This document shows positions 9,931-63,657 of a DNA stretch of 64,000 bases, piece after piece (the first letter of the stretch is position 1; each line of letters opens with the position of its first letter). Made by a program: the position numbers and the translations under genes. Source of the DNA: Candidatus Micrarchaeota archaeon. GTDB lineage: Archaea > Micrarchaeota > Micrarchaeia > Micrarchaeales > CABMGC01. Where the stretch lies: NCBI GenBank assembly GCA_021828295.1, contig JAKASF010000001.1:2702-66701 (forward strand), written 5' to 3'. Below the pieces are notes generated by a model. The model was not told where the DNA came from and searched no databases. It saw only the letters and a program-made list of their open reading frames with translations.

Positions 9931-9931
9931 T

Positions 9932-14570: not shown

Positions 14571-14571
14571 G

Positions 14572-15621: not shown

Positions 15622-15631
15622 GGATGTCGGA

Positions 15632-17688: not shown

Positions 17689-17696
17689 GTGAATGC

Positions 17697-18521: not shown

Positions 18522-18561
18522 ATGTTATAAGGTTTGCCCAAGAATCAGAAAAGTTGATGCG

Positions 18562-20067: not shown

Positions 20068-20074
20068 TGCTCGC

Positions 20075-21667: not shown

Positions 21668-21679
21668 CGGGTGTGCCGC

Positions 21680-36690: not shown

Positions 36691-36759
36691 GTTTGCCGTC
36701 AGCTCCGTGCGCGTCCAGAAAGGGTTAAATCTTTAAAGGCGATACCCTTATGGTATAGC

Positions 36760-37959: not shown

Positions 37960-37963
37960 GTTG

Positions 37964-39487: not shown

Positions 39488-39498
39488 GGTGAGATTGA

Positions 39499-40137: not shown

Positions 40138-40149
40138 CTGCGTGGTCTA

Positions 40150-41325: not shown

Positions 41326-41329
41326 AAAA

Positions 41330-42322
41330 ATGAAGATAGAATACGAGAGGCTCATATCAAGGAGCGTTGCAAACCTCTTCGTTCGCGAGCTCGAGCTCGC
41401 GGGCGTGAAGACGAACATCAACAGCTTCATCCGCACCATGGTCCTGGGCGGCCTAGCGATCTTCGTGCTCGTCCCCATCGCGCTCTTCTTGGGCGCCGGC
41501 CTGAACGCCGGCATCGCCGTCTTCGGAGGGATAGCCGCAGCGGCCATATTCGAGGTAGTCATATACGCGCTGCTCGAGTTCAAGATAGAGCAGAGGAAGA
41601 CGTTCGTGGAGGACCTGCTTCCGGATTACCTGCAGCTTGCTGCTGCAAACGTGAGGAGCGGCATAGCCCTCGACAAGGCGATGGTCCTTGCGGCACGCCC
41701 CGAATTCGGATACTTCAGCGATGACGTGAAGGAGATGAACAAGGAACTGTACGGCGGCGAGACGCTGCAGCAGGCGATGACCAACCTCGGCAGGAGATAC
41801 AGGTCGACGCAGCTCCAGCACACGATACGAATGATGAACGAGGGCATACAGTACGGCGGAGGCATGACAGACCTTCTCAACCAGATAGCCAAGGACATAC
41901 GCAACCAGCACATGGTTCAGAAGGAGATAAGCGGGCAGCTGTTCATGTACACGATATTCATCGCATTCGCGGCGCTGATAGGCGCCCCGATTCTTTACGC
42001 TCTCACGTCGCAGATGATAGGCGTTACAGATACTGTATGGGCCGGAATACTGAAGCAGAATCCCGGCGGCCTGCCTACAGCAGGCATCTCGTTCCTCAGG
42101 CCCAGCCCGCCAAAGATAACCATAGCCGCGTACCACAACTTCGCGCTCGCCAGCGTTATACTCATCTGCGGCTTCGGCGCTTTCATAGTCTCGGCGATAT
42201 CCACAGGTTCCGTGCTCAAGGGCATACGCTATCTGCCAATATTCCTCATCGTGGGCCTCGGCATCTTCTTCGTCGTGTCGTCGCTGATAGGCGGCATCTT
42301 CACCAGCATAAGCGGCGTGTGA
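41330..42322 (+). CDS. Pilus platform protein, single T2SSF domain (TadC-like half)
   Basis: LPDYLQLAAANVRSGIALDKAMVLAARPEFGYFSDDVKEMNKELYGGETLQQAMTNLGRRY plus TM helices. It starts 4 nt after the previous gene. Confidence 0.75.
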   Translation: MKIEYERLISRSVANLFVRELELAGVKTNINSFIRTMVLGGLAIFVLVPIALFLGAGLNAGIAVFGGIAAAAIFEVVIYALLEFKIEQRKTFVEDLLPDYLQLAAANVRSGIALDKAMVLAARPEFGYFSDDVKEMNKELYGGETLQQAMTNLGRRYRSTQLQHTIRMMNEGIQYGGGMTDLLNQIAKDIRNQHMVQKEISGQLFMYTIFIAFAALIGAPILYALTSQMIGVTDTVWAGILKQNPGGLPTAGISFLRPSPPKITIAAYHNFALASVILICGFGAFIVSAISTGSVLKGIRYLPIFLIVGLGIFFVVSSLIGGIFTSISGV

Positions 42323-47148: not shown

Positions 47149-47687
47149 CAGCCAACACCAAAGCTCTTGTTAGTCCAGATTATTATCAGTACGCTTACAG
47201 GAACGCCATTGAGAACAGCAGACTGTCTTGCAACCTGTATGGCGTACGGGTTCCTCGTGTAGGGATACAGGCCCATCGCGAGCGTCGAGTTGCTCGAGTT
47301 TATTGCTATGTACCAGTCGTAGCCCACGCCCAGCAGCTGCTTTGTAGATTCGTATGTCAGCGTGTTGTAGTTGCTCATGGCCGCTAGCGCCGCTATCTTG
47401 CCGGGGGAGAGCTGGCTCCCGCTCCCTGTGCCGAGCCCGATGCTGACGTTGGACCACGTGAGCGTGTTGGTCACGTTAATCGCCGAGTTCCAGTTCTGCG
47501 GCGTGCCCCGCGTCAGGACCCGGCCCTGGAGGCTCTGCAGCTGTGCCTGCATCGTCTGGAGCCCGAGGCCGTATGCCGTGCTGTACTGGCCGCTTATGTT
47601 CACCCAGACAAACGTGAGCAGTATGAGCGCAGACCCGAATATGATCATGGCGAATATGACGTCAAACGACCAGAATTGGGCTTTCAT
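47148..47687 (-). CDS. Small pilin-like protein (179 aa), candidate major or minor pilin
   Basis: MKAQFWSFDVIFAMIIFGSALILLTF. The ATG at 47687 forms an ATGA overlap with the upstream stop. The track's 294-aa version (to 48032) adds an Arg-rich extension that overlaps the upstream gene. Confidence 0.7.
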   Translation of the reverse strand: MKAQFWSFDVIFAMIIFGSALILLTFVWVNISGQYSTAYGLGLQTMQAQLQSLQGRVLTRGTPQNWNSAINVTNTLTWSNVSIGLGTGSGSQLSPGKIAALAAMSNYNTLTYESTKQLLGVGYDWYIAINSSNSTLAMGLYPYTRNPYAIQVARQSAVLNGVPVSVLIIIWTNKSFGVG

Positions 47688-50600: not shown

Positions 50601-51046
50601 TCGACGCATATGGTCCCGAACGAGTTCTGTATGTAGAGCGTGCCGTTCGCTATCGGAAGGTTGTAGTAGAAGGTGCCGGGCTGGAGGTACGAGCTGCTCG
50701 ATGCCACGTTCTTCACTGTGCTGAACGCATACGCCTGGATCGCCTGGCTGCCCACGCTCGCGTTCACTATCACCTCTCCGTTCTTAGTTATCAGCAGCTG
50801 GTACGCAAGCGTGCCCACATCTCCTGTTATCGGGACCCTGGCTGTGTAGCCGTTGCCTGCCTGCAGAGCCGTGTCCATCTGCGCCGCTATGCTCTGTGCC
50901 ACGAGCTGCTCCTGCGAGAAGAGCTGGCTGCTGAGCGTCTGCGCCCTCTGCGTGGCGATCAGGGAGAAGAGGAAGAGAAAGACCACGAGCACGAATGCGA
51001 AGATAATCATGAATTCCAGAGCTATCTGCAATTTCTTTCCAGGCAT
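47684..51046 (-). CDS. Giant pilin-like surface protein (1120 aa): class III signal peptide + four LamG-type modules
   Basis: N-terminus MPGKKLQIALEFMIIFAFVLVVFLFLF. Four junction motifs: VIGWWPLNGNANDYSGQGNNG, LIGWWPLNLGQGNA, LVGWWPLAGDALDYSGDGLNG, LVGWWPLNGNANDYSGRGNNG. Confidence 0.75.
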   Translation of the reverse strand: MPGKKLQIALEFMIIFAFVLVVFLFLFSLIATQRAQTLSSQLFSQEQLVAQSIAAQMDTALQAGNGYTARVPITGDVGTLAYQLLITKNGEVIVNASVGSQAIQAYAFSTVKNVASSSSYLQPGTFYYNLPIANGTLYIQNSFGTICVDYNCPNASVQAANVSLSSQSAHAALFNGQTSVITVADTPALRFASSPFSYSAWLYENSHSDCQSMLSKLGSSSGYEFRYCGASDVLELLIGDGSSYAYVQSSSVVLREGAWYYVVITNNGNNQVCFYINGALLGGSCVSYAKTYSASSNPVLIGQENGAGSTYWNGGMSNVQVYNAVLSSSQVQSLYSQGITSPPILAANVIGWWPLNGNANDYSGQGNNGVVSGPLLFTTVAELFANVTNQAGYAIANDLVGFTTTLGNLNGNAHATSNYTNTAGIAVAFLTQNLTNGQAVVKATAYNGNTALDGNLIGWWPLNLGQGNAASDASGGGSSGSLLGGAGWGNPNSVADFDGNTSYIAPANTALLQPSSAITYSAWIDPQYESTASGTAGRCQRVMQNGADGGGGWQMDFDCGSSPSTAADCAVHTSSGNSGSSNSITPSLVLGKWYMVTCEYNSVTNVVSTYLNGVLAQSYTYSGGAITYGGTAVPYIGTDDSKKSGQYFSGGMADAQVYNSLLTQSQLQQLYQQGVSGVPPTNAGLVGWWPLAGDALDYSGDGLNGTIYGNLGFTASPTTTGAISNSSGVLAASFNAVSGGSYVSVPLSGSLNVASDIAVSIWLIPSNIVQSDALQMNYGSGGGYTMYIRSTGVAGFSAQNQAFPSTAQALQANTLYNLVGTYDGSTFKIFVNGVYDGSLSLATTFNNIGPLEIGRGNDGAFVGNVLNVQVYSTTLNSNQIAQIYSRGAEGAPISNTSLVGWWPLNGNANDYSGRGNNGTASNVMYYSHTVSLPAQPSVFAGTGVSLNGQNGYIKVPQYVNPTAAFTVTAWMKAGYSSGSPSILYHGYVGSSAGFDFRMENGGELACGVNGGGGNARYDSTGSYADSRWHFVACTFLSGQYVTTYADGAVASTGSASGIGSVANSNPFYIGADGTANDYLNGTLADVQLYNIPLTQPQIQQLYNAQSPPSAYALIPLSWSP
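49956..49993 (-). repeat. 38-nt exact inter-gene repeat (copy 2)
   Basis: Identical to 43266..43303. Confidence 0.9.
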
Positions 51047-51047
51047 C

Positions 51048-51518
51048 TCATACCTTGGGGGTGAGGTACACGCACGGCACCGCGTTGTTGCTCGGGCACG
51101 AAGCTACCGAGGTCACGTTCACCAGGTAGGTTCCAGTGGACGTTATGCCTCCTAGGGAGCCGCTCACGTTCACCGGCGTGTACGCGGTGATGTAGCTGAG
51201 GCCCGAGGGCGACGTTATCACGAATATGACCTCGTGCCCTATCGTGTTGTTCACATTGCCGACGTAGATGAACCTCACGTTTGGAGGTACCTGTATCTGC
51301 ACCAGCTGCTTTGCCGGCGGTCCCTGGCTGCCTATGAGCGTGGCCGTGCTGGCCAGCTTGCTCGCCGCCTGCTGGGACTGTATGGCCGACAGGTTAGTGT
51401 TCGTGCTCGCCAGCTGTATGAAAGCTATTATCACCAGAGGCAGCAGTATCGCGAGCCCGAAGGCTAGCGTCACGAGCAGCTCGAAGCTCGACTGAAGCCT
51501 TTTACTCCCGTTCCTCAT
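51048..51518 (-). CDS. Small pilin-like protein (156 aa), first gene of pilin operon
   Basis: MRNGSKRLQSSFELLVTLAFGLAILLPLVIIAFI. The KRLQ-xxx-E-L pattern is shared with the next gene (KKLQIALEF). I moved the start to the ATG at 51518; the track's 51686 extension is Arg/Ser-rich and overlaps the CBS gene. Confidence 0.65.
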   Translation of the reverse strand: MRNGSKRLQSSFELLVTLAFGLAILLPLVIIAFIQLASTNTNLSAIQSQQAASKLASTATLIGSQGPPAKQLVQIQVPPNVRFIYVGNVNNTIGHEVIFVITSPSGLSYITAYTPVNVSGSLGGITSTGTYLVNVTSVASCPSNNAVPCVYLTPKV

Positions 51519-52659
51519 AGTGTCTCTCCGCAAGCCTCCTATTGCTGAGGAAGCTCTCCTTCCTGGTGCGCACGCGTTTGTAGATGCTGTCGAGGAGCGC
51601 GTCGAGCGTGCTCTCGAGGTTGTAGCCGTTCGCATGCGCAAACACCACGCCCCGCTTCCGCAGCGCGAGCCTCGCGTGCAGCTCATAGTTCCTCTCCCTG
51701 TGCCTCTTGACGTTCACAGAGACGTAATCGACCTCGTTGTGCCCGAACCTGTCTATCTTGCTTACGAGCCTGTTCATGCTGTCGCGTATCGCCTGCTCGT
51801 AGTCCCCGGTGTACTCGTCCAGCCCGGAGACCATCACCCTGCTCTGCGTCTTCGCTGTTGCCGCTGCAGCGCTCTCTATTATGTCCCTGATGGAGACCAC
51901 GCCCACCGGCACAGAGTTCTTTGTGACAACCAGCGCTGATATCCTGTTCTCCAGGAGCATCTTCGCCGCGTCTTCTGCGCGCCTGTCCGCGTCTATCGTG
52001 TATACCGGAGCGCGCATTATGCTCGCAGCAGAGATGTTGGACGGCGAGAAGGCGTACGACTTCCTCTCCGGAAGCCTCTCCTCTGGTTTGGTAAGCCTGT
52101 CTGCTATGTCCCTCTGGGATATGACCCCGGAGAGCCTGCCCTTGGCATCGAGCACCACCACCCTCGCTATCTTGTTCTTCTCCATCGCGTTTCTTGCCTG
52201 GGCCATGCTCGAGTCCTGGGGTATGGAGATTATCGGCGAGGACATCATGTCCGCCACCTTGGCCTTGGCCAGCATGTGCAGCGAGAGTATGGTGCTTACC
52301 ACTACGTCGCGCCTCACCACCCCCGTTATCCTGCTTCCCTCCTGGTAGGGCAGCGCCTTGGCGGAGAAGTCGTGGAAGTAGTTGATCAGCATGCCGAGAG
52401 AGGTGCTGGAATCGAGAACCGGAAGCTTCCGCGCGAACTTGCCCACAGGCAGGCTCTTGGAGAACTTGAGCGGGCCGATCGCCTGCTCCCTGAACAGCGA
52501 CCTGTCGTCCACCAGGCCAAAGTACTCCCTGTCGCGGAGCACCACCACCACGCCCAGCTTCCTTACCTTGTCCATCGTCTCCGTTACAGGCGTCTTGTAT
52601 TCGTAGAACTGCGCGTCAGAGACAAACTCCTTTGGCAATGCTTCGAATAGAGCTGGCAA
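51502..52659 (-). CDS. CBS-domain (two CBS pairs) protein fused to C-terminal HPF/RaiA (ribosomal S30AE)-like domain
   Basis: There are four CBS-like units (e.g. VVVLRDREYFGLVDDRSL; ARVVVLDAKGRLSGVISQRDI; ALVVTKNSVPVGVVSIRDI). The C-terminus VMVSGLDEYTGDYEQAIRDSMNRLVSKIDRFGHNEVDYVSVNVKRHRERNYELHARLALRKRGVVFAHANGYNLESTLDALLDSIYKRVRTRKE follows the beta-alpha-beta-beta-beta-alpha pattern of HPF/YfiA. Confidence 0.6.
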   Translation of the reverse strand: MPALFEALPKEFVSDAQFYEYKTPVTETMDKVRKLGVVVVLRDREYFGLVDDRSLFREQAIGPLKFSKSLPVGKFARKLPVLDSSTSLGMLINYFHDFSAKALPYQEGSRITGVVRRDVVVSTILSLHMLAKAKVADMMSSPIISIPQDSSMAQARNAMEKNKIARVVVLDAKGRLSGVISQRDIADRLTKPEERLPERKSYAFSPSNISAASIMRAPVYTIDADRRAEDAAKMLLENRISALVVTKNSVPVGVVSIRDIIESAAAATAKTQSRVMVSGLDEYTGDYEQAIRDSMNRLVSKIDRFGHNEVDYVSVNVKRHRERNYELHARLALRKRGVVFAHANGYNLESTLDALLDSIYKRVRTRKESFLSNRRLAERHYEERE

Positions 52660-53743: not shown

Positions 53744-53838
53744 TGCTAATTTCCTTATTAGCGTGTCCTGTGAAGAACAGAGTAACTACTGACTCGTGAT
53801 GAAGTCTATATCGGCTGAGGACAAGGTTGAATGATAAG

Positions 53839-55359
53839 ATGCGCTACAACGCCAGGTTCGCGGCCCTGCTCCTCATCGCGGCGACAGTACTCCTTCTGTC
53901 CACTTCGCTCTTCATAACCCAGACGGCGATAAGCGACACCGACCCATCAACGTACGTCATCGTGCCTATACTGATGCTGCCGCTCCTTGTCCTCTTCTCG
54001 ATGAAATCAAAACCAGTTCCCAATGTCGATAAAAGGAGCGCGCTTGTAGGCATTGCCGCATTCGCAGCCTTCATCGCATTGACTCTCGTGCTCAGGGTGT
54101 ACTTCACCTTCTTCTTCATCAGCTTCAGGGCCGATATGCTGCTCATGCCCCTGGCTCTCGCCGCTTCAATCTGCCTGCTGTTCGGGATAAGCAATATCTC
54201 AAAGTTTCGCGTGGCTCTGGTATACTCCCTGCTAGCGTCTCCAATGGTCCTCTACCCGATACTTGTACAGGCTGGCGCGTTCACCCAGGCAAACAGCGCA
54301 CTCGTCTACTCCGTGATAAGACTCTTCATAAGCGGGGTAAGCTATACAGCACCTATCACGATAAGCGCCAACGGTTATAGCATAGGCATAGGCCAGGCGT
54401 GCGTGAGCATAGGCACGTTCATCGCGCTCGCGCTCTTCCTTGTCCCTGTCGCATACCTGTACAACGGCACGGTGAAGAGGAGGGCGCTCTGGGCCGCAAG
54501 CGGCGTAGCGCTGCTCTTCGTCCTCAACCTGGCGAGGATGCTCGGCATCTCGCTGGTCTGGCTGGGCTACGGTCCGAACACAACAGCGGCGCTGATCCAC
54601 ACATTCATAGGTGTGCTTCTCTTCTACATCGACATAGTGGTCATGATCATGATTGCAGGCTTCTTCGGCCTCGCGATAGAGAAGCTCTCGCGCAGCAGGA
54701 GGAAACCGAGAGCTGAGCATGTCTCTCCCTGGCCCGCCGCTGCCGCCTTTGCCTTCTGCGCGGTCTACGTGCTTATCACGCTGAACTACTCTTCGGCATT
54801 CCTAATCTCGCCGATGGCCTTCCAGAACAGCCAGCCGTTCAACTACTCCAATCCTCTCGTGTCGGGCGGCATACAGTCTCTCATAAACAGGGGCAACTTC
54901 ACCAGCCTCGCGGTCGCCACGCCGAACGGCACAAGCGTATTCATAACACTGACCAATGCCTCTATAAGCAGCATCGAGCCCGTGCTGCTCTTCGTGACGG
55001 TTCCAAACAGCAATGTGGTTTCTGGCCTTCAGTCGCACAACATCGTTCTGGGCGAGATGCGCTTCTTCAACGCTCGGGGCGCGGCGGAGACAGAATTCGA
55101 TCTTGTATCGAACAGCACCGAGTTCCTCGTGTACAACACTAACCTCGAGCTTGTGCTATCGAACTCTTCGGAGACAACCGCGTCAGCGTACCTGATAGTG
55201 CCCGCTGCGGACCTGCCCGCGGAGAACCTCACGTGCGGCAGCTACGACCCCGTATACTCGTGGTTGGCCAACCTGCCTTTCTCGTCGAGCCACAACTCTA
55301 CCGTGGAGCAGAAACTGCTCGCGGCGCAGTGCTTCTCCTACAAGCTCCTCTGGGCTTGA
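53839..55359 (+). CDS. Exosortase/archaeosortase-family membrane protein with about 200-aa C-terminal extracytoplasmic domain
   Basis: Polytopic. The candidate catalytic triad is spaced as in archaeosortases: IGQACVSIGTF (Cys), then 45 aa later LNLARMLG (Arg), then ALIHTFIGVLLF (His). The start is ATG 53839 or TTG 53827. Confidence 0.55.
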   Translation: MRYNARFAALLLIAATVLLLSTSLFITQTAISDTDPSTYVIVPILMLPLLVLFSMKSKPVPNVDKRSALVGIAAFAAFIALTLVLRVYFTFFFISFRADMLLMPLALAASICLLFGISNISKFRVALVYSLLASPMVLYPILVQAGAFTQANSALVYSVIRLFISGVSYTAPITISANGYSIGIGQACVSIGTFIALALFLVPVAYLYNGTVKRRALWAASGVALLFVLNLARMLGISLVWLGYGPNTTAALIHTFIGVLLFYIDIVVMIMIAGFFGLAIEKLSRSRRKPRAEHVSPWPAAAAFAFCAVYVLITLNYSSAFLISPMAFQNSQPFNYSNPLVSGGIQSLINRGNFTSLAVATPNGTSVFITLTNASISSIEPVLLFVTVPNSNVVSGLQSHNIVLGEMRFFNARGAAETEFDLVSNSTEFLVYNTNLELVLSNSSETTASAYLIVPAADLPAENLTCGSYDPVYSWLANLPFSSSHNSTVEQKLLAAQCFSYKLLWA

Positions 55360-55534: not shown

Positions 55535-56260
55535 ATGCCGGGGAGAATAGTAGCAACATGCATGGACCGCAGACTGCCCCAAAAGATAGAGGAGCTGGGC
55601 GGCGGCATACACGTAAGCAATGCAGGCTGCAACATAGCCTCGATGGGAGGCACTATCGCAGAGCTTGTCCGCAGGAATCCTGGCGTAAAGGAGATAGTGG
55701 CACGCGTGCATACCGATTGCGGAGCTATGGGCGCCGTCGACGATGCGAGGAGAGGCAACGAATCGAAATACGGAGAGCGCACAAGGGATACGCTATTCAG
55801 TCAGTTCAAGCTCCTGAAGTGGGCCGACAGGGCAGTGCTTGAAACCGAGGTGAACGCGGAAGTGCAGCTCAAAGCCCTCCAGAAACTGCGTGAGGCTGTG
55901 CTGGAACTCACGGGTAGAAACGTCGGCGTGCGTGTAGAGGTGATAGACACGAGCGCGATAGCCGTTCCCGATATGGATCACGAGAGGTTCGCGCTGCTCG
56001 TCTCGAAGCCGTCCGAGGTTCCGGTTCCAGAGATAATATCCAGAGCGGGACTGGAGCAGTTCGCCACCTACTCCATACAGCTGCTCAGCCTCAACGAGGC
56101 GCTCGGCGATGTGGGGCTCACGATAAACAACATCGGGGTGCACAGGGTTGTGTTCGGGTTCGCCTCCAAAGAGGAGGAAACAGAAGCGAAAGCGAATGCA
56201 AACTCGCTGTTGAAATCTTTTCCTGGAGCGGTCTTTGAGACCGTCGACATAAGCGCCTAG
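55535..56260 (+). CDS. Beta-class carbonic anhydrase-like protein
   Basis: The metal-site pattern ATCMDRR (CxDxR) ... SNAGC ... RVHTDCGAMG (HxxCG) matches beta-CA/CS2-hydrolase-type enzymes. 241 aa. Confidence 0.55.
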   Translation: MPGRIVATCMDRRLPQKIEELGGGIHVSNAGCNIASMGGTIAELVRRNPGVKEIVARVHTDCGAMGAVDDARRGNESKYGERTRDTLFSQFKLLKWADRAVLETEVNAEVQLKALQKLREAVLELTGRNVGVRVEVIDTSAIAVPDMDHERFALLVSKPSEVPVPEIISRAGLEQFATYSIQLLSLNEALGDVGLTINNIGVHRVVFGFASKEEETEAKANANSLLKSFPGAVFETVDISA

Positions 56261-58422
56261 TAGTTAGTCTGCTTCGCAGGTTCGGGACCCTGCGGGGTTT
56301 CGGGCAGGTGTCCATCGTCTTGGGCCTGGCCGTAGGAGCGGGCGGGAGGCCTGCCGAGTATCAGGAAGATTATTATCATGGCTATTACAGCCACGACTAT
56401 GGCTGTCTGAGTAAGAGATCCGTACGGGGATGCTGCGTTGCTGGCCGTAGAGTTAGTGCTGGAGTTGGTGGGTCGTATAGTTATCGCAACGTTGGCAGCC
56501 GTTATGTTGAACGGCGATCCGGTTATCGCGTAGAACGACATGCCTGGGGAGCTGGCTCTGTATAAGTAGGAGGTCGAGTTCGAGGAAACCAACGTGGTCT
56601 TCAACTTTGTCCAGGAGCTGGTGCTGACATTGTACCTGTAGAGCGAGAGGTTTTCAGGACTGACGTTGTTGTTGAGCATCCATGTCCTTGTCACATTGAA
56701 GGTGTAGTTTACGTTCCTTACGTTTGCGTCGCCTATGGTGCTGTTTACAGCGATATAGCCGGCCGCTTTGCCTGGCGGCGCGGGGAGCGTCGCGCCAGCG
56801 GATCCCAGCTGGTTTGCAGACGTATACGATTTGATCGATATCGCGCTTGCGGTGAAGTTGTTCCTTACCGAGAAGTTGACGCTCCTCACAGGAATTCCGG
56901 ATCCGGTCACGTTGACCTTAGTGGCGAATCCGTTCTGCACGTTGCTTATGCTCACAACCGCGGCGCTTTCAGAGCCGTAAGTCGTAACGTTCGCCGGGAC
57001 GTACCTCGTAGTTGTCTTGTTGCCTGCCAGCGTCTGCGCAACGTAGATCTGCTGCGTGGTGGTCTTGTTGACCACGGTCGTGTTCTCAAAAGCTTGCTTT
57101 ATGAGAGGAACTGCAACCCTCTGCACCAGGGGCACCGAGCCCAGAGTTTGTGGGCTGGACGCCGCTGTCTTGATTGCGCTTATGTTCACTACCACAGTTG
57201 ATGAGTTGCCTGCAGCTACCCACTTCGCTACGTAGGTCGAGTTGCCGCGCTCGGTTATGTTGCTCGTGTTGAGATCTGGGGTATAACCGTGGGGCGTGTA
57301 GTTGACCACAAGCCCGCGCAGCAGAATAGCGTTCTGGGCTATCGCATTGGCGGTAGTGGAAAGCGTGCCATTACCCACGAAACCCTCTATGGTTCCGTTC
57401 GCGGTAGCGTTACCTGTGGCCGCAGAGCAGCTTATGCATGCAAGCTTTACCGAGATTCCGTTGACGCTGCTAGCTATTGAGTTTGCAGTGGTCTGTATCT
57501 GGATACCTATGCTGGCCGATACGTTCGCCACTGTTCCCTGCGGCAGCGAGGAGACGAGGGTTGCGTTCCTGATTATCGGCACGTTAGTTGGATACACGGC
57601 GTTGGAAGGATAAGTGATAGCGACAGGGACTACGCACGCGGTGCCGTTGAAGTATTCGCTGCTTGGGCACGCACAGACGTTGGCTGCGGACCTGTAGACG
57701 CTCCCTCCAGAGCAGAGAGGAGTGCCAGTTGCGCATGTGCCACCAAGCTGTGAGTACTCGCCAACCGGGCATCTGCATGAGCCCAGCGCTGAATTGTATA
57801 CCGCCCCTCCTGAGCAGTACGGTGCCACTGTCGTGGTTGCAGAAGTTGTGTGCTGTGCTGTAGAAGAGTTTATTGTGATGGTCGCTTGCAGGCTTGTGGT
57901 CCTCGGCGTTGTCGAGGAATTACCCGCTGTGCTTCGCGGCTGAACCGTGCTAGTGATCACTGTCGTGGTGTTCTTCGCGGACGTTTTGTTGGTCGTGTTG
58001 ATCGAGCTTGCAGCAGCCGTTGTGGTAGCTTGTATAGAAGTGGGGCGCGTGGTGTTTGCTATGGCATTTGCAGTAGTGATTACCGATATCGATAACGTTG
58101 TGGAGGAACTGGTCGTGTTCCTTGTGCTCGTGGTGTTCTTCGTGGTGACCGTGCTGCTGACAGTAACACTCGTCGATATGCTTGTGCTGTTCCTTGTCGT
58201 AGTAGTGCTCTTTGTAGTGGTCGTGTTCCTTGTAGTGGTAGTGATTTTTGTTGTAGTGTTCCTTGTTGTTGTGCTGTTGCCTGTGAGGTTGGCTGCAGGT
58301 AACGCACCGGTCAATATGCTCACCACGAGCAGGCTAGCCAGAAGCAAAAGAGCGGCACGGTTCAAAATCATCGATATGATTGCTATCAGCATTTTTAATA
58401 AAGTGCGCCTTCGCCTTGGCAC
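56257..58422 (-). CDS. Sequon- and Thr-rich surface glycoprotein candidate (721 aa) with C-terminal TM anchor
   Basis: GTG start immediately after the upstream stop. N-terminus MPRRRRTLLKMLIAIISMILNRAALLLLASLL. A T/N-rich stalk (NTTTKITTTTRNTTTTKSTTTTRNSTS...). Dozens of N-x-S/T sequons. The C-terminus is ...SPYGSLTQTAIVVAVIAMIIIFLILGRPPARS plus a 30-aa tail. Confidence 0.65.
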   Translation of the reverse strand: MPRRRRTLLKMLIAIISMILNRAALLLLASLLVVSILTGALPAANLTGNSTTTRNTTTKITTTTRNTTTTKSTTTTRNSTSISTSVTVSSTVTTKNTTSTRNTTSSSTTLSISVITTANAIANTTRPTSIQATTTAAASSINTTNKTSAKNTTTVITSTVQPRSTAGNSSTTPRTTSLQATITINSSTAQHTTSATTTVAPYCSGGAVYNSALGSCRCPVGEYSQLGGTCATGTPLCSGGSVYRSAANVCACPSSEYFNGTACVVPVAITYPSNAVYPTNVPIIRNATLVSSLPQGTVANVSASIGIQIQTTANSIASSVNGISVKLACISCSAATGNATANGTIEGFVGNGTLSTTANAIAQNAILLRGLVVNYTPHGYTPDLNTSNITERGNSTYVAKWVAAGNSSTVVVNISAIKTAASSPQTLGSVPLVQRVAVPLIKQAFENTTVVNKTTTQQIYVAQTLAGNKTTTRYVPANVTTYGSESAAVVSISNVQNGFATKVNVTGSGIPVRSVNFSVRNNFTASAISIKSYTSANQLGSAGATLPAPPGKAAGYIAVNSTIGDANVRNVNYTFNVTRTWMLNNNVSPENLSLYRYNVSTSSWTKLKTTLVSSNSTSYLYRASSPGMSFYAITGSPFNITAANVAITIRPTNSSTNSTASNAASPYGSLTQTAIVVAVIAMIIIFLILGRPPARSYGQAQDDGHLPETPQGPEPAKQTNY
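58050..58290 (-). repeat. Imperfect tandem repeats encoding Thr/Asn-rich (N-T-T-T-[KR]) stalk
   Basis: The plus strand shows reiterated GTAGTGGT/GTTGTAGTG units. On translation these give TTRNTTTKITTTTRNTTTTKSTTTTRNSTSISTSVTVSSTVTTKNTTSTRNTTSSSTT. Confidence 0.6.
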
Positions 58423-58692
58423 TCAAAAAAGCGCGGCGATGCATATGAGGATTAGCAGATTTACTGCAAGCAGCGCGACCATGTGTTTACCGCTGCCGCT
58501 CGCCTCGTAGGGTTTAATGCGCCATACCAGTGCAATGCTGCCTGCCGCTGCCGCGATCACAGCAACCGATAGGTATTCGGTCGCTTGGAGCAGTACGAGC
58601 GCCGTCGCTCCTGTGCAGATAAGACTCGCAAACAGTACGCACGCTATCGCAGGCCTGTTCTCCATTGTGCCACGCTTGTAGATCTTTCGCAT
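58423..58692 (-). CDS. Small membrane protein (about 80-89 aa, 3 TM)
   Basis: ...MENRPAIACVLFASLICTGATALVLL...VAVIAAAAGSIALVW...MVALLAVNLLILICIAALF. The start is uncertain (58692 or 58665). The stop abuts the start of the next gene. Confidence 0.45.
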   Translation of the reverse strand: MRKIYKRGTMENRPAIACVLFASLICTGATALVLLQATEYLSVAVIAAAAGSIALVWRIKPYEASGSGKHMVALLAVNLLILICIAALF

Positions 58693-58700
58693 GTTGTGCG

Positions 58701-58883
58701 CTATATCACCATGTAGACTAAGATTGCGGAAAAGAAGAGCAGAATGAATCCCAGCATCTGCTTCTGCAGCGTGTCGTTTCTCTTGCCGGCAAGGCGGCAC
58801 GCCATCGCGACGGTAACGTATGCGCTGGATGCAATCGCGCTTGCGTCCAACACCGAGACTACGAAGATGCTCAGCATGTCCAT
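58701..58883 (-). CDS. Small 2-TM membrane protein (60 aa)
   Basis: MDMLSIFVVSVLDASAIASSAYVTVAMACRLAGKRNDTLQKQMLGFILLFFSAILVYMVI. The ATG at 58883 lies 1 nt after the upstream stop (58885). Confidence 0.45.
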   Translation of the reverse strand: MDMLSIFVVSVLDASAIASSAYVTVAMACRLAGKRNDTLQKQMLGFILLFFSAILVYMVI

Positions 58884-58884
58884 T

Positions 58885-59361
58885 CTATACAGCCTCAACA
58901 TCAAGCGCGTATCCCGCCAGATACTGTACGAGCACCCCCGATTCTCTGCCGAAGTAAAGGTGAGCGAGCAGCTCAATCTCGTCTCTGACAAACAGCGTCA
59001 GTCGAGGCTCTGTCCGTGCCGTCGCTGTCTCAAAATGACGCGAAAACCATGCGACTTCGGCAATTCCCAGTTTACGGAATGCATCGATTCTCATGACCTC
59101 TCCGAATTCGTTGCGTTTAAGCAGGCCGGCAACGAGCAGCCTGTCATGCGCCTCGCTCTCAAACATGGCGTCTCTAGTAGTGCAGGCTGCATCGCAGCCT
59201 TCGCTTGCGCCATTGCCCAAACAAACACCTTCACGCGTCTCTGCAGCTATAACCGTTATGCGATCCCTGGTCAGGGCCACGGACCTGGCGACCGCCACAA
59301 AAGCGATGCCTCCGATCACCGGCAGGAACTGCAGTACATAACCATAGATCACGCTGTTCAT
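58885..59361 (-). CDS. N-terminally anchored protein (158 aa), unknown function, locus B
   Basis: ATGA overlap with the upstream gene stop (59358-59361). N-terminal TM VIYGYVLQFLPVIGGIAFVAVA. No recognisable motif. Confidence 0.5.
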   Translation of the reverse strand: MNSVIYGYVLQFLPVIGGIAFVAVARSVALTRDRITVIAAETREGVCLGNGASEGCDAACTTRDAMFESEAHDRLLVAGLLKRNEFGEVMRIDAFRKLGIAEVAWFSRHFETATARTEPRLTLFVRDEIELLAHLYFGRESGVLVQYLAGYALDVEAV

Positions 59362-60041
59362 AGTCTCACTAGCTTGAAGGTGCCTTTTCCAGTGCTCACC
59401 ACCCTATAACCGGCGCTCTCGGCTCCATCGAGCGCCGCCACGACCTCCTTCTTGCCTATTCCCAGCCGTCCAGCAATGCTTCCCACACTGTGGTCAGAGA
59501 AACTGGACAGCACAACGGCTCTCAGCACCACCCTCTTGAGAGTCTCGGCCAGTTTGCTCCGCTCCTCCTTAAGCGACGCGTTCTCGCTGAGCGTCGCCAT
59601 AAGCCTCCGCGAAAGTATCGTGTCAGGGATTGCATCTCTCGTCTGACTTCTGGCGTATTGCATGGTATCGAGCTGCTGCTCCGCGATTGTCATTATCAGA
59701 TACGGGTAAAGGGAGTTCATCTCAACGTCATAGCAGCTTGAGAGGGTGTGCAGCACTCCCAGAAGCCTCAGCATGGCTTCCTGAAGATGGCGCATCGGAG
59801 TATGTTTCGAGTAGATGCTTACTGCAATGCTTTCTTTGTCAAGTTCAAGCAAGAAAAAGTGATCCCTGCCATCCTTCTCTCCTATTACATAAGCAAGCGA
59901 ATTACCGTCGCGTTCCAGCTCCATCGATGGGTAGGGCCTTAGGCATTCCTTGATTCTTGCAAAGCTGGACATGGGCTTTGCCCCCACGCTTATCCTGCTG
60001 AACAGGTAGCTCTTCCTGCCCATGTTTAGTTTGACGCTCAT
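59358..60041 (-). CDS. Coiled-coil protein with C-terminal winged-helix (locus B), homologue of 20768..21502
   Basis: DHFFLLELDKESIAVSIYS aligns with KPFLFYIIDIGSSSLKLTYS. A central coiled coil is present (LSENASLKEERSKLAETLKR). The C-terminus VGSIAGRLGIGKKEVVAALDGAESAGYRVV is wHTH-like. There is an ATGA overlap with the ATPase stop. Confidence 0.6.
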   Translation of the reverse strand: MSVKLNMGRKSYLFSRISVGAKPMSSFARIKECLRPYPSMELERDGNSLAYVIGEKDGRDHFFLLELDKESIAVSIYSKHTPMRHLQEAMLRLLGVLHTLSSCYDVEMNSLYPYLIMTIAEQQLDTMQYARSQTRDAIPDTILSRRLMATLSENASLKEERSKLAETLKRVVLRAVVLSSFSDHSVGSIAGRLGIGKKEVVAALDGAESAGYRVVSTGKGTFKLVRL

Positions 60042-61156
60042 TCATTCAACCGTTGAGATGCCACTGCGGCCGCGAAGGAGTCAGCCAGCTCGTCCTCGCC
60101 TATTCCAAGTTTCCTAAGCGCGGCGAGAAGTCTTCTACGGTTTGCCCCCCTGCCGAGAAGGAACACTATCAGCGCCGAAAGGTCGACATAGCCGTTCCTC
60201 TCTCCCGCGCGCAATGCCTCCTGCGCGTCACCCTCGCTGCATGCCTCGCATACCGCCTCTTCAAGTTTAGATCTGGCTATCTCGTGTCTCGTCGCACCAC
60301 CCGCGTTTAACCTAACAATGTCATCGAGCATAATCCCATGCACGTTCTTGATTAGGCAGAACTCCCTCTTCCCAGAGACGAGCGTCTGCAGAGCGGCGCA
60401 GCTTCCAACTCCCAATCCCTGTATCGTTTCAATCTGCCCGCTCCTCAGTCCGTAGTTTGCCGCGAGCCTGCTTAGTCCCTGCCTGTTCTGAAGCCTGAAG
60501 ATGAAGAGCGTTGCTGCGTTTGACAGCATTGCTAGGTCTACGTCCTCGACGAGCTGCGAGGAGAAGATCAGGCCGTAGCCGTACTTCCTGCCCTCGCGGA
60601 GCAGGGTCTGCAACGCCTTGCTGCGCTCCAGAAGCTTCCACGCCTCGTCCAACATGATATAGACGCGCTTTCCGTTCGCTGCGCGCATGCGCATTCCCTC
60701 TATCATACTGGTGAGGACATCATCGGCTATGGAGGCTCGGATCCGCTGGTTTCCGGAGTCTGCAAGGTTGATATAGACTATCCCAGAAACCTTTTTTGCT
60801 AACAACGAATCCGCCAATTTCGGGTCGGCCCGTTCCTCTCCCGCCTGATCTACAAGGGCTTTGTACTCCCCGGTGAAATCTACCAGGACGATCGTCGCTC
60901 CCGCTATCTGGGCGAGCTTGAGCATAAGGCTGCGCATGAGATAGGTTTTTCCGCTGCCAGTTATCCCGCATACAAACACATGTGGGTTTACTGCGTTGTT
61001 GAGGTCAAGGAAGTAAGGGAGGCCTCTCGTCCCGCCTATCAGCACCCCGCTTCTTGCAGATTCTATTGCACGCGCTGTCCCCTGTGCGCCAGTGTCCGGG
61101 AATCTGATTAGGTCTGCGGCATACGAGACCTTTGCAAATCCGCCATCGGCTCTCAT
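60038..61156 (-). CDS. VirB4/TrbE/CedB-like P-loop ATPase (FtsK-HerA superfamily), locus B, compact 372-aa form
   Basis: Walker A VFVCGITGSGKTYLMR. IVLVDFTGEY. Walker B RVYIMLDEAWKLLE. LIFSSQLVED. The ATG at 61156 forms an ATGA overlap with the upstream stop. The track's version (to 61324) would overlap the upstream gene by 170 nt. Confidence 0.8.
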   Translation of the reverse strand: MRADGGFAKVSYAADLIRFPDTGAQGTARAIESARSGVLIGGTRGLPYFLDLNNAVNPHVFVCGITGSGKTYLMRSLMLKLAQIAGATIVLVDFTGEYKALVDQAGEERADPKLADSLLAKKVSGIVYINLADSGNQRIRASIADDVLTSMIEGMRMRAANGKRVYIMLDEAWKLLERSKALQTLLREGRKYGYGLIFSSQLVEDVDLAMLSNAATLFIFRLQNRQGLSRLAANYGLRSGQIETIQGLGVGSCAALQTLVSGKREFCLIKNVHGIMLDDIVRLNAGGATRHEIARSKLEEAVCEACSEGDAQEALRAGERNGYVDLSALIVFLLGRGANRRRLLAALRKLGIGEDELADSFAAAVASQRLNE

Positions 61157-61884
61157 GCAGCTCCCAACCCCGTCTCCAGCTCCTGCAGCAGCGCCTCGCC
61201 CTTTAGCACCTCGTGCTCGAAGCCCAGCATCGAGGAGAACGAGTCCGCCATTATCCCCGCGTTCCTGGAAGCTTCCCGCGCCGCGTCGATTCCGCTCTGA
61301 GACCTGGCGAATGTCTTCAAGCACATGCTCAAACTCAGCAGTTTTTCTCCGCGCACACTGCGTATCTCGCTCTCAATTGTGCTCAGTTCTCTCCTCAGCC
61401 CGTTGATCCTGTCCTGCTTCTTCGGGTCCGTCCTGGCAAGCTCTATCTCTTTGAGTCTCCTCTTTTCCTCTAGGGCGTCGAGTATGCGTACGTGTTCGAC
61501 GCTTCTCACACCTAGGCCGAACTCGAACGGGAAATCTGCCTTTGCCACAAGCGTCTCCAGGTGCTCGCCGTTTCTCTCTCCAGGGTCGCCGCTGAGGAGC
61601 ACGCACGAAACCGCATGATATTCATTCCCGATCTTCTTGACTGCGGCTGACAGGTCCTCGCTGAGCGTATAGCCGTCGCTTATCTCTATCACGCTCCCGC
61701 GCCTCAGCAGGAGGTTGTTGATCACGTGTCCGGAGCGGAAGTAGAGAGCCGAGGCGAGGAGCAGCACCACCGAGAGAAGCACCAGTGCTCCGCTCTGCAT
61801 CAAAAGCGCTGAGACGAAAATGACTCCAGCAAGCGAGTAGAATGCGTAAGAGTAAAATGCGTTCCTTACTTCAAGTTTCGTCAT
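61153..61884 (-). CDS. 2-TM + soluble-domain protein (locus B), homologue of 16858..17688 and 17697..18521
   Basis: MTKLEVRNAFYSYAFYSLAGVIFVSALLMQSGALVLLSVVLLLASALYF, then ...ADFPFEFGLGVRSVEHVRILDALEEKRRLKEIELAR. The ATG at 61884 lies 4 nt after the upstream stop. Confidence 0.65.
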   Translation of the reverse strand: MTKLEVRNAFYSYAFYSLAGVIFVSALLMQSGALVLLSVVLLLASALYFRSGHVINNLLLRRGSVIEISDGYTLSEDLSAAVKKIGNEYHAVSCVLLSGDPGERNGEHLETLVAKADFPFEFGLGVRSVEHVRILDALEEKRRLKEIELARTDPKKQDRINGLRRELSTIESEIRSVRGEKLLSLSMCLKTFARSQSGIDAAREASRNAGIMADSFSSMLGFEHEVLKGEALLQELETGLGAA

Positions 61885-61888
61885 AAGA

Positions 61889-62896
61889 TCACAAGAGGTT
61901 GAACTTCCCGAAGAAGTTGTCCGAACCGAGCAGCGTGGCAAGCTCCTTCACCGATATTGCGGTGAGCATGAGGCTGAAAGCGGGCAGCACAAAAGAGTTC
62001 ATTATGAAGTAGGCAATAATGCCAAACGTGTAGCTCACGAGGTTAGATATCTGCTTCGAAACGGCTCCCCCGATGTCCTCAAGGCTGCCCACGATTCCCG
62101 TTCCGTTGGCTCCCTGGTTCGCGTAGGCCATCACGCTGCTTTCCACGTTACTCGTGTTCAACGAGAGCGTAGAGAGGCTTGTCTGGTTGGATACGAGCGT
62201 ATATGCGTTTGCTATGCCGGCATTGAGCAGGTAGGTCATTGGGAATACGATGTAGAAGCCTATCGCGAGCGCTATCAGGAAACCGCCAGTCTTTCTGGTG
62301 GGGTAGAAGGTGCGCAGTACAAGCCCCAGCGGAAGGATGAGGGTGAGCGCGCTTGCCGCTACGAAAATCAGGACCGACGCCTGGACAGTCGCGCTCACGG
62401 CTGCGGCCCCAAGAGCCTGTATCGCGCTCTGCACCTGTGCAAGCACCGGACTCAGAAAGAGCCTGAAGACGCCAAGCGCCGCATACAGCGATGTGAGCCC
62501 TATTATCAGGAGCGTGATGCTGCCCAGCACCGAGTAGTGGTAGCTGCCAAGGTAGTAGTACTGGCCCGGCCCTATGAGGTAATCGTACGCGAAGCAGATG
62601 GCCGCGTTGTACTGCAGAGATTGGCTGCAGCTGAGCCGTGTGCCGTTGGAGAGCACCGCTGCGTTGACAAAGGAGCCGACAACGCCGCCGTTGGCAAAAA
62701 GCACCAGGAAACCTCCGACGAGCGCGCCGTTGAACAAGGACTGCATTATCTCGTTCTTCCCCCATTCTTTGAGCCTCCTGTCGTTCATGGCGTAGCCGCA
62801 GCCCAGCAGCACTCCACCTATGGTCAGCATGATGCTGACAAGAATCACGGATATGTTCAACCCGTACAGTCCGAAAGGGGCCGAGAGGATCGTCAC
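61889..62896 (-). CDS. Polytopic membrane protein, 7th member of the array family (VirB6/TrbL/CedA-like candidate), locus B
   Basis: Family motif LVLRTFYPTRKTGGFLIALAIGFYIVFP. C-terminal tail ISVKELATLLGSDNFFGKFNLL. GTGA overlap with the pilin-like gene stop. Confidence 0.7.
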   Translation of the reverse strand: MTILSAPFGLYGLNISVILVSIMLTIGGVLLGCGYAMNDRRLKEWGKNEIMQSLFNGALVGGFLVLFANGGVVGSFVNAAVLSNGTRLSCSQSLQYNAAICFAYDYLIGPGQYYYLGSYHYSVLGSITLLIIGLTSLYAALGVFRLFLSPVLAQVQSAIQALGAAAVSATVQASVLIFVAASALTLILPLGLVLRTFYPTRKTGGFLIALAIGFYIVFPMTYLLNAGIANAYTLVSNQTSLSTLSLNTSNVESSVMAYANQGANGTGIVGSLEDIGGAVSKQISNLVSYTFGIIAYFIMNSFVLPAFSLMLTAISVKELATLLGSDNFFGKFNLL

Positions 62897-63270
62897 ACAG
62901 ACACGTTGGTTATGTTGGTAAGAAGGTGGGTCGAAGCAAGCGCCAGGCCGTTCGAGGCCACTGACAGCACCGCCACGATTATCGCACCCACAAGTATATC
63001 TATGGCCGTGGAATGGAAGTTTGCCCTCTTCGTTGCCGGGAAGAGCTGCCCTATGGCATAGAAGATTCCGGCCACGATGAAGAGCACGGCGCTCAGCACC
63101 GGGCCGAGATGAGCAAGGAGATTCTGTATGCCCGTAAGCGTGCCGATTATGTCAAACGAAAATGCTGCTGCGTAGGATTTTCCGGAGAACAGCATAAGCA
63201 GCAGCCACATTATCTTCGCATACCGTTTTACCACCGCGACGACCGTAGCTGCATAACTCTCTCTTCTCAT
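62893..63270 (-). CDS. Small two-helix membrane protein, VirB2/TrbC/CedA1-like pilin candidate (locus B)
   Basis: 125 aa. Signal-like IMWLLLMLFSGKSYAAAFS, helix VLSAVLFIVAGIFYAIGQLF, basic loop PATKRANFHS, helix TAIDILVGAIIVAVLSVA. It is a paralogue of 5643..6011. Confidence 0.6.
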   Translation of the reverse strand: MRRESYAATVVAVVKRYAKIMWLLLMLFSGKSYAAAFSFDIIGTLTGIQNLLAHLGPVLSAVLFIVAGIFYAIGQLFPATKRANFHSTAIDILVGAIIVAVLSVASNGLALASTHLLTNITNVSV

Positions 63271-63293
63271 TTATTTACCTCAATATCTAATCA

Positions 63294-63302: not shown

Positions 63303-63390
63303 GTAAAAGTATATAAGCTTTTCCGGCCATAGGCATACTCGAGCCTCCAAAAGCAAAGATTTATATCAGTTGTAATACATGTTATACAAT

Positions 63391-63657
63391 ATGAAGAAGG
63401 ATGTCCTTGTTGCGAGGAATGTGGACAAGGAGGCCTATGCCAGATTTAGACGAAAGGCGCTAGAGAGAGGGCTTAACGTTGGTGCGGCTCTAACAAGCGC
63501 CATGGAGCTGTGGATGGAAAAAGGCTCAAAAAAGAAAAAAGACATCAGAAACCTGATGGCTCTGGAGGGCTTCATAAAGATGGGCAGAAAAGGCAACTGG
63601 AGCGAACATGTAGACGACATATTATACGGGAGCTATAATGATATTCCTAGACACTAG
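63391..63657 (+). CDS. vapB: VapB-type antitoxin candidate (ribbon-helix-helix-like)
   Basis: MKKDVLVARNVDKEAYARFRRKALERGLNVGAALTSAMELW is RHH-like. It overlaps the downstream PIN gene by 20 nt. The TATA TTTATAT (63360-63366) lies 28 nt upstream. Confidence 0.55.
   Translation: MKKDVLVARNVDKEAYARFRRKALERGLNVGAALTSAMELWMEKGSKKKKDIRNLMALEGFIKMGRKGNWSEHVDDILYGSYNDIPRH

Follow-up and report, generated by a model that had tools for sequence, protein, structure and literature searches.

Our analysis concerns a 64,000-nucleotide (nt) stretch of contig JAKASF010000001.1 from a Candidatus Micrarchaeota archaeon (assembly GCA_021828295.1, positions 2,702 to 66,701), referred to below as the window, and in particular the minus-strand genes close to its end (locus B), which a preliminary description made from the DNA letters had presented as a second, compact copy of a gene system lying in the first third of the window (locus A). 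Ordinary archaeal housekeeping genes and three tRNAs are also present in the window. Contig DAHVUO010000016.1 (GCA_027357515.1) and a Logan contig carry the locus B DNA at 100% identity, and the database ATPase closest to that of locus B (B4) is annotated 'Candidatus Micrarchaeota archaeon'. All of the open reading frames (ORFs) previously listed for locus B are present on the minus strand, and the junctions between them are those first described: going down the operon, they are a GTGA overlap, a gap of 4 nt, three overlaps of the ATGA type, gaps of 1 and then 8 nt, and a last pair of genes that abut directly. The features of the locus, with lengths in amino acids (aa), are as follows:

63310 to 63316, minus strand: TATA-box-like TTATATA, about 40-46 nt upstream of the B1 ATG, putative operon promoter (read from the sequence only)
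63277 to 63281, minus strand: Shine-Dalgarno-like GAGGT, 7-11 nt upstream of the B1 start codon (likewise)
62893 to 63270, minus strand: B1, VirB2/TrbC-like propilin, 125 aa, ATG start (ORF, domain and profile comparison)
61889 to 62896, minus strand: B2, polytopic membrane protein, 335 aa, candidate VirB6-like platform or channel (ORF, model)
61153 to 61884, minus strand: B3, transmembrane hairpin plus cytoplasmic alpha/beta domain, 243 aa, ATG start (ORF, model)
60038 to 61156, minus strand: B4, compact P-loop ATPase, 372 aa, ATG start (ORF, Pfam, hhalign)
59358 to 60041, minus strand: B5, cytoplasmic, N-terminal alpha/beta domain, coiled coil and probable C-terminal winged helix, 227 aa
58885 to 59361, minus strand: B6, one N-terminal transmembrane helix, 158 aa (profile search, transmembrane prediction)
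58701 to 58883, minus strand: small protein with two transmembrane helices, 60 aa (ORF and start codon)
58423 to 58692, minus strand: small protein with three transmembrane helices, 89 aa (ORF, public gene calls)
56257 to 58422, minus strand: B8, Thr- and sequon-rich surface protein, 721 aa, GTG start (ORF, TIGR04213)

The gene calls of the public contigs reproduce the products of 125, 335, 243, 372, 227, 158 and 89 aa, and make the first of the small genes 66-67 aa long instead of 60. The putative TTATATA box is preceded by a purine-rich stretch resembling a B recognition element, and the box and the GAGGT ahead of B1 would together fit the head of a single operon. A run of six T residues, directly before the stop of the 89-aa gene (58423-58435), which the GTG of B8 abuts, could be an archaeal oligo-T terminator between the operon and the surface-protein gene.

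By its architecture and homology B1 appears, at moderate confidence, to be a pilin of the VirB2/TrbC type. The family alignment displays a long basic leader, an A-x-A-type cleavage region and two hydrophobic helices separated by the basic loop PATKRANFH, with a conserved N-x-T/S sequon at the C-terminus. The best match of the pilin family profile in the PDB is TrwL/VirB2, the pilin of R388 (E 6e-4), and hhalign aligns the family to a VirB2 profile at 83.9% (E 8e-6) compared to less than 1% for VirB3, VirB4, VirB6 and VirB8; orthologues of B1 also give weak TrbC and T4SS_pilin matches. The VirB2-like two-helix pilin proposed from the sequence is thus upheld by its architecture and by a VirB2-specific profile match of moderate significance. 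A similarity relation between CedA1 and CedA, and between VirB2 and VirB6, has been reported by Beltran et al. (2023; PMC9905601); here, the first helix and basic loop of the pilin (62893-62896) and the N-terminal transmembrane helix of the polytopic protein (61889-62000) aligned at a non-significant 16.9% by hhalign. A match of the pilin profile to a 384-aa polytopic protein in a locus of another genome (L018) was set aside as probable contamination of the iterated profile.

The neighbouring products B3 and B4 are, as we read the B3 model and the gene arrangement, a split VirB3-VirB4, a likeness that the preliminary description of a protein with two transmembrane helices and a compact ATPase had missed. 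B4 consists of a RecA-like domain matching the VirB4 C-terminal domain and a helical C-terminal domain of about 70 aa; its Walker A motif starts about 60 residues from the N-terminus. It matches DUF87 (8e-14), TrwB_AAD_bind (4e-12) and AAA_10 in Pfam, and its best NCBIfam match is CedB, of the crenarchaeal Ced system (2e-15; 56.3 bits against a cut-off of 700); the NCBIfam matches of B4 and of the locus A ATPase are to CedB, CedD, VirB4, TraC, CD1110 and HerA. At the profile level, the ATPase family aligns to VirB4 at 97.9% (hhalign, E 4e-13) over columns 460-786 only, that is, over the C-terminal domain, and to VirD4 at 92% over 84 columns only, while HerA models are matched in the P-loop regions only. 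These sequence comparisons identify B4 as an ATPase of the VirB4 family, corresponding to the C-terminal domain. B3 lies immediately upstream and its gene overlaps that of B4 (ATGA). It begins with a transmembrane hairpin in VirB3-like position and topology, continues as a cytoplasmic alpha/beta domain that includes a helical hairpin, and has neither a P-loop nor any similarity to B4. No sequence family was matched in Pfam or NCBIfam. In a Foldseek search of the PDB with its AlphaFold2 model (predicted local distance difference test score, pLDDT, 79.1), the top 12 matches were all TrwK/VirB4, at probabilities of 0.97-1.00 and a best E of 2.3e-4. The region matched is most likely the VirB4 N-terminal domain, since B3 shows no similarity to the ATPase itself. 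The split VirB3-VirB4 reading therefore comes from three features: the B3 model matches TrwK/VirB4, it carries a VirB3-like hairpin, and its gene overlaps that of an ATPase lacking an N-terminal domain. The B3 family forms 225 clusters at 50% identity, and its distant relatives are mostly unnamed proteins; a 'Rosetta stone' fusion to an ATPase was found in none of the best 150 of these 225 representatives, which span 70-317 aa. Searches of PDB sequences with the profiles of B3 and of A5, the locus A counterpart of B5, returned coiled-coil noise only.

B2 is plausibly VirB6-like according to its model, a likeness that is not established because the Foldseek scores are weak and sequence profiles fail to connect the two families. 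Six hydrophobic segments are predicted, with very long helices projecting past the membrane in the AlphaFold2 model (pLDDT 81.8, predicted template modelling score 0.74), and the family has two conserved extracellular Cys residues, an invariant LRxxxPTRKxGG motif and a variable, sequon-rich loop. The protein matched nothing in Pfam or NCBIfam, and its 68 database relatives are all unnamed Micrarchaeota proteins. The two best PDB matches of the model were TrwI/VirB6 (probability 0.96 and 0.69). A match to the transmembrane part of an ABC transporter in the profile search of the PDB was judged spurious.

B5 has no predicted transmembrane segment. Of its description as a coiled-coil and winged helix-turn-helix (wHTH) protein, the coiled coil stands, whereas the C-terminal wHTH rests on weak, sub-threshold matches (HTH_36 at 0.033 for B5; EAP30 at 0.006, FeoC at 0.023 and TrmB at 0.025 for A5), which make the winged helix probable. 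B6 has counterparts in 10 B-type loci by profile search, and in two more (L006 and L007) by position, at 13-18% identity; from these comparisons it is a conserved sixth gene of B-type loci that is poorly conserved in sequence. It had no similarity to VirB8 or VirB3 profiles by hhalign, and the same comparison of the small transmembrane proteins with VirB2 and VirB3 profiles was negative. Homologues of the 60-aa protein occur at the same position in L003, L008, L009 and L014, and one of the 89-aa protein in L008.

Locus A, on the opposite strand, contains counterparts of the first five of these genes and several additional ones:

5619 to 6011, plus strand: A1, pilin, paralogue of B1 (blastp, alignment, hhalign; Pfam T4SS_pilin E 0.021)
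8740 to 16813, plus strand: six tandem paralogues of the polytopic (VirB6-like) protein, matching the B2 profile at 6e-35 to 3e-61
16858 to 18521, plus strand: two tandem paralogues of the protein with two transmembrane helices and a VirB4-like domain (profile searches, hhalign)
18487 to 20371, plus strand: ATPase of 526 aa and, as a gene of its own, a 98-aa homologue of the B4 C-terminal domain
20768 to 21502, plus strand: A5, coiled-coil/wHTH protein, paralogue of B5 (profile searches, hhalign)
21671 to 24022: type-I membrane glycoprotein, 783 aa, downstream of locus A, no known family

The motifs that had suggested a common origin of the two loci are indeed shared: LFIVAGIFYAIGQLFP in the locus B pilin and LFLIGGVLYAIAHFLP in that of locus A, LRTFYPTRKTGG and LRS..TRxxGG in the polytopic proteins of B and A, respectively, FPFEF (B) and FPFRF (A) in the proteins with two transmembrane helices (two-helix proteins), and LDEAWK in both ATPases. 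In blastp comparisons of B with A, run in a tiny database, the pilins matched at 5e-4, the two-helix proteins at 7e-6, the ATPases at 2e-20 and B2 with all six polytopic paralogues of locus A at 1e-6 to 3e-4; four of the five pairs were reciprocal best matches. The fifth pair, B5 and A5, was not significant by blastp (0.68), its homology then being detected by profile comparison. Profiles built from B-type loci only were aligned by hhalign to profiles built from A-type loci only, using orthologues from 28 other Micrarchaeota loci, and gave 97.1% (7e-11) for the pilins, 99.7% (2e-25) for the polytopic proteins, 99.8% (5e-28) for the two-helix proteins, 100% (2e-53) for the ATPases and 98.2% (6e-14) for B5 and A5, or 98.5% (2e-15) in a separate comparison of this last pair. 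Since these independent A-only and B-only profiles align, all five pairs are homologous (hhalign 97-100%), in agreement with the claim originally made for the core proteins. The 98-aa gene product of locus A aligns with the C-terminus of B4 (4e-14), and the locus A ATPase matches the VirB4-like CD1110 family in NCBIfam at 1e-18, over positions 393-721 of 752, and CedD at 2e-19. Locus A is an expanded, ancient paralogous version of the system, with six VirB6-like genes, two B3-like genes and a separate gene for the ATPase C-terminal domain. Some of its six VirB6-like paralogues carry Cys-rich and sequon-rich extracellular insertions.

The order of the genes is kept in other Micrarchaeota genomes, with at least 15 loci of the B type, 8 of the A type and 5 of the C type, and the succession of pilin, polytopic protein, two-helix protein, ATPase and coiled-coil/wHTH protein recurs in dozens of genomes; the five-gene core proposed from the window alone corresponds exactly to the families common to the three locus types. 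B-type loci encode, in this order, a pilin (~120 aa), a polytopic protein (~335 aa), a two-helix protein (~240 aa), an ATPase (~370 aa), B5 (~225 aa), B6 (~150-210 aa) and small transmembrane proteins. A-type loci have several polytopic paralogues, one or two genes for two-helix proteins, an ATPase of 480-540 aa, a gene of ~100 aa, a membrane protein of ~130-160 aa, A5, and a type-I membrane glycoprotein of 780-880 aa. The C-type loci are compact operons (L016, L019, L022, L025 and L028) encoding an 81-aa pilin (seen in L019), a polytopic protein of 309-361 aa (L019, L028), a two-helix protein of ~260 aa, an ATPase of 478-543 aa and a B5-like protein of ~232 aa (379 aa in L025). In relatives whose ATPases are 35-47% identical to B4 at the amino acid level, the B-type operon is found near genes for an L16-family ribosomal protein, diphthamide synthase, translin, OGG and prolyl-tRNA synthetase, and in one more distant genome it lies among genes of the tricarboxylic acid cycle. 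In at least two other genomes the A and B types are physically linked, sharing a contig in GCA_027363655.1 and the 853-kb chromosome OY969902.1. When the ATPase domains were placed in a neighbour-joining tree (Poisson distances), A4, the locus A ATPase of the window, was separated from B4, with support of 100/100 for the A clade, 100/100 for A plus C and 72/100 for B. The paralogy of A and B is ancient because the two ATPases fall into different clades; from these sequence data the two loci are ancient, co-inherited paralogues, which answers the question of their age raised in the preliminary description. A recent duplication is ruled out by the tree and by the co-occurrence of A and B in several Micrarchaeota genomes. 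These tiny symbiotic archaea thus seem, judging from their gene content, to keep two or three versions of a device for transferring DNA or macromolecules. In eight of the 15 B-type loci, a soluble ATPase of 720-760 aa is encoded directly downstream of the operon (L005 10841-13129, L007 10694-12901, L009 12838-15045, L011-L014 and L029). This family aligns to VirB4 at 99.6% (hhalign, E 4e-24) over 449 columns that include part of the N-terminal domain; no such gene adjoins locus B within the window.

We consider it likely that locus B is a chromosomally fixed, minimal pilus or translocation apparatus resembling a type IV secretion system (T4SS), of the kind represented by Ced and Ted and by the conjugation core of monoderm bacteria. 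The assignment is strengthened by the orthologous loci that carry a clear VirB4-like ATPase downstream. Pilus, channel and transfer activities of locus B are predictions from its sequences and models. B1 would be made as a propilin with a long leader, inserted by the Sec pathway and cleaved by signal peptidase I, leaving a two-helix membrane hairpin. B2, in spite of its weak likeness in fold, may act as a VirB6-like oligomeric platform or channel for the extraction and polymerisation of the pilin. In the putative split VirB4 motor, B3 would provide the VirB3-like transmembrane hairpin and the VirB4-like non-ATPase domain, and B4, translationally coupled to B3 through the ATGA overlap, the VirB4 C-terminal ATPase, the two presumably assembling into one motor. 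B5 might be a cytoplasmic adaptor, a substrate-binding protein or a regulator, and B6 and the two small transmembrane proteins could be lineage-specific membrane accessories. The output would be a VirB2-type pilus or channel moving DNA or another macromolecule between cells, the partner being either another Micrarchaeota cell or a Thermoplasmatales host. By analogy with Ced and Ted, we favour DNA as the substrate transported.

Several observations count against this interpretation. B1 matches TrbC/VirB2 in Pfam at an E of 0.0024, which is under the cut-off. The Foldseek matches of B2 to TrwI are weak (E 0.09 and 0.19, TM-scores 0.30-0.39), its hhalign comparison with a VirB6 profile was negative (0.2%), and TrwI was not found in a profile search of PDB sequences. 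A Pfam scan of 53 members of the B3 family gave no match to the VirB4 N-terminal domain (CagE_TrbE_VirB), and hhalign comparisons of B3 with VirB4 and VirB3 profiles were negative; the assignment of the matched region to that domain, although the likeliest, comes from an alignment whose TrwK residues were not reported. Among PDB sequences, B4 scores better against HerA-type proteins (2e-18) than against VirB4 (4e-8), as is to be expected within this superfamily. The VirB reference profiles were narrow, being made from R388 and other proteobacterial MPF_T plasmids, about 7-9 in all. Searches of locus B with Pfam, NCBIfam and VirB profiles found no relaxase, VirD4-type coupling protein, VirB8 or VirB1, and the apparatus is known here from genes and predicted models alone.

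A serious alternative, which we hold to be possible rather than probable, is that the same T4SS-like apparatus transfers no DNA and is the device by which an obligate episymbiont attaches to Thermoplasmatales, or takes up or delivers proteins, lipids or metabolites. Tandem VirB6 paralogues are a feature of the T4SSs of obligate intracellular Rickettsiales, and the expansion of VirB6-like genes in locus A resembles them. This host-interaction role is suggested by analogy with Patescibacteria, whose T4SSs lack relaxases, are tied to an epibiotic lifestyle and are reported to be required for epibiotic growth (PMC12102498, PMC12857230); Micrarchaeota are likewise host-dependent DPANN archaea (PMC8975820, PMC5498576), Pfam and NCBIfam searches of locus B detected neither a relaxase nor a coupling protein, and type IV pilus genes, giant LamG adhesin-like pilins among them, are found between the two loci. 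However, Ced and Ted, the closest characterised archaeal relatives, exchange DNA, the probable winged helix of B5 and the typical link of the VirB4/HerA/FtsK ATPase clade to DNA point the same way, and effector candidates were not identified. The view that locus B belongs to an integrated conjugative or mobile element, a genomic island serving its own transfer, has a precedent in the suggestion of Golyshina et al. (2017) that membrane-protein-rich islands of Micrarchaeon Mia14 are 'likely conjugative elements' (PMC5498576), which was speculation. A tRNA-Ile gene about 0.8 kb beyond B8, a VapBC-like pair just upstream of B1 and a drop in G+C to 0.51 in the 62-64 kb region would agree with such an element, yet the housekeeping neighbourhood is the same in genomes whose ATPases are only 35-47% identical to B4, no integrase, relaxase or replication gene adjoins the locus (locus and flanks), no similar plasmid was found in PLSDB, PHROGs gave generic P-loop matches only, and the A and B types are kept together across lineages. 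We give this view hardly any credence, and rejected the reading of locus B as a plasmid or integrative conjugative element on its conserved housekeeping context, the missing integrase and relaxase and the absence of plasmid relatives.

It also seems highly unlikely that locus B is no T4SS at all, its ATPase being of the HerA/FtsK type and acting with lineage-specific membrane partners in defence or translocation, with convergent or spurious likenesses to VirB proteins. The ATPase does score best against HerA-type and anti-phage HerA proteins (PDB, PADLOC), the similarities to VirB6 and to the VirB4 N-terminal domain are undetectable by profile-profile comparison, and the pilin matches are sub-threshold. 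Against this, independent, component-specific signals agree (B1 with VirB2, the B3 model with VirB4, the B2 model with VirB6 and the ATPase with the VirB4 C-terminal domain), the gene order matches virB6-virB3-virB4, and orthologous loci carry an additional, clear VirB4 homologue. Moreover, neither a HAS-barrel domain nor the partner effector of a HerA system (NurA or another nuclease, Sir2, DUF4297) was found in locus B, and its non-ATPase genes had no PADLOC matches. Defence-system and viral readings were rejected after the PADLOC and PHROGs searches.

To our knowledge, the T4SS-like systems so far characterised in archaea are confined to Crenarchaeota (Ced and Ted) and to plasmids. Both Ced and Ted are built from VirB2, VirB6 and VirB4 homologues (PMC9905601). 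Ted, of the Thermoproteales, with its TedC pilin, VirB6-like TedA and VirB4-like TedB (PMC9905601), is likened here to locus B by its published description only: both are chromosomal, 'domesticated' minimal T4SS-like sets with a VirB4-family ATPase and no relaxase, in which the gene of a VirB2-like pilin with a Sec-type cleavable signal lies beside that of a polytopic VirB6-like protein. In contrast to crenarchaeal Ted, locus B belongs to a DPANN lineage, the Micrarchaeota, with two to three paralogous types of the system; it encodes the transmembrane plus VirB4-like module and the ATPase domain in separate, overlapping genes, adds the conserved coiled-coil/winged-helix protein B5 and the bitopic B6, and has no ParA, Rad50 or HerA neighbours. 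Ced, of the Sulfolobales and Desulfurococcales, has a VirB2-like CedA1, VirB6-like CedA/CedE and VirB4/HerA-like CedB/CedD, and resembles locus B in distributing the VirB4 function over more than one polypeptide, in its VirB6-like paralogues and in CedB being the best NCBIfam match of B4; the second ATPase downstream of eight B-type loci also recalls the two-ATPase CedB/CedD arrangement. CedB and CedD each bear a different partial VirB4 N-terminal domain (PMC11868833). Unlike B4, which has no N-terminal domain, the Ced ATPases keep their own transmembrane and N-terminal parts fused, CedA1 is unprocessed whereas B1 has a long leader, and Ced is confined to Crenarchaeota and UV-inducible together with Ups pili (PMC9905601, PMC11868833). 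With 56 bits, where the CedB model demands 700, B4 is not a CedB equivalog, and locus B is, by this sequence measure, not a member of Ced. Neither B1 nor B2 had an NCBIfam match at E <= 1, the presence of CedA and CedA1 models in NCBIfam not having been checked.

Among bacterial systems, the monoderm conjugation core (mating pair formation types MPF_FATA/FA, pCF10) has VirB6-like, VirB3-like and VirB4-like proteins encoded in the same order by overlapping genes, as in prgH-prgI-prgJ of pCF10 (PMC12857230), and R388 provides the counterparts of the individual signals (TrwL for the pilin profile, TrwK for the B3 model, TrwI for the B2 model and the VirB4 C-terminal domain for the ATPase). Compared to these, locus B is neither plasmid-borne nor part of an integrative conjugative element, its VirB4 is split, a VirD4 coupling protein, a relaxase, a VirB1 hydrolase and VirB8 were not detected, and most of its partners have no detectable sequence similarity. 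The T4SS of Patescibacteria (candidate phyla radiation), a possible ecological analogue, is also chromosomal, belongs to episymbionts that are ultra-small and host-dependent, and has VirB2-like pilins and in most cases no relaxase (PMC12102498), but it is bacterial and its full-length VirB4 is nested within MPF_FATA. Four features differ from every described system that we found: the split VirB4, the conserved B5, the two to three paralogous types, one with six tandem VirB6-like genes, and the occurrence in DPANN archaea. In a full-text literature search, no paper tied Micrarchaeota to VirB or Ced components; the nearest was the 2017 speculation on Mia14, type IV pili and vaguely described 'likely conjugative elements' being all that had been mentioned before in Micrarchaeota (PMC5498576).

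Of the five proteins of the core, four are unannotated 'hypothetical proteins' that fall into no Pfam or NCBIfam family, and genome mining can use the five-gene core, as obtained by comparing the three locus types, as a clean definition. The system bears on how DPANN symbionts exchange material with their hosts, and its natural 'split VirB4' lends itself to studies of the coupling between the VirB3/N-terminal module and the ATPase ring; it also provides concrete targets for proteomics, cryo-electron tomography and filament cryo-electron microscopy in cultivated Micrarchaeota co-cultures, if those strains carry it. More tentatively, and with considerable doubt, the two or three anciently diverged, domesticated machines with their uniquely split VirB4 might form, together with LamG-tipped type IV pili, a physical conduit for exchanging DNA or other macromolecules with Thermoplasmatales hosts. 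If true, archaea would have an equivalent of the T4SS that is tied to epibiotic growth in Patescibacteria, and no T4SS-like system would have been characterised before beyond TACK archaea and plasmids.

Upstream of B1 lies a gene for a small protein (63379-63657) that is ribbon-helix-helix-like as judged by eye, and beyond its counterpart on the matching public contig (L001, 6000-6651) there are a PIN-domain gene, which makes up the VapBC-like pair, and a superoxide dismutase gene. This insertion separates the pilin gene from that of the L16-family ribosomal protein, and is absent in the relative L003. At the other end, B8 has a PGF-pre-PGF domain (TIGR04213, 2e-16), a C-terminal transmembrane anchor and a short cytoplasmic tail. 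L001 and L002 have the same DNA here, with starts placed by the gene callers so as to give shorter products (441 and 523 aa); the start of the long ORF is plausible, as it yields a proper signal sequence. The coordinates, GTG start and abutment given for this 721-aa protein in the preliminary description stand. In other genomes its position is occupied by different genes; from these comparisons B8 is probably a neighbour and not a component of the conserved system. Two genes from B8, an exosortase/archaeosortase-family protein is encoded at 53827-55359 (TIGR04178, 9e-12), and the two may be a sortase-substrate pair.

The 783-aa glycoprotein downstream of locus A has a sequon-rich ectodomain of ~540 aa, a transmembrane helix at 539-567 and a cytoplasmic domain of ~215 aa, and counterparts of 780-880 aa are found downstream of every complete A-type locus. 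The archaeal type IV pilus locus between loci A and B (35197-51686) encodes a PilB-like ATPase (37961-39487; T2SSE, 3e-32) and two PilC/TadC-like proteins (40150-42322). On the opposite strand it encodes giant pilin-like proteins of 888, 722 and 1120 aa with LamG/ConA domains, the largest of which has four Laminin_G_3 repeats (9e-88). The pairing of type IV pilus adhesins with a T4SS-like system in this window recalls that of Ups and Ced.

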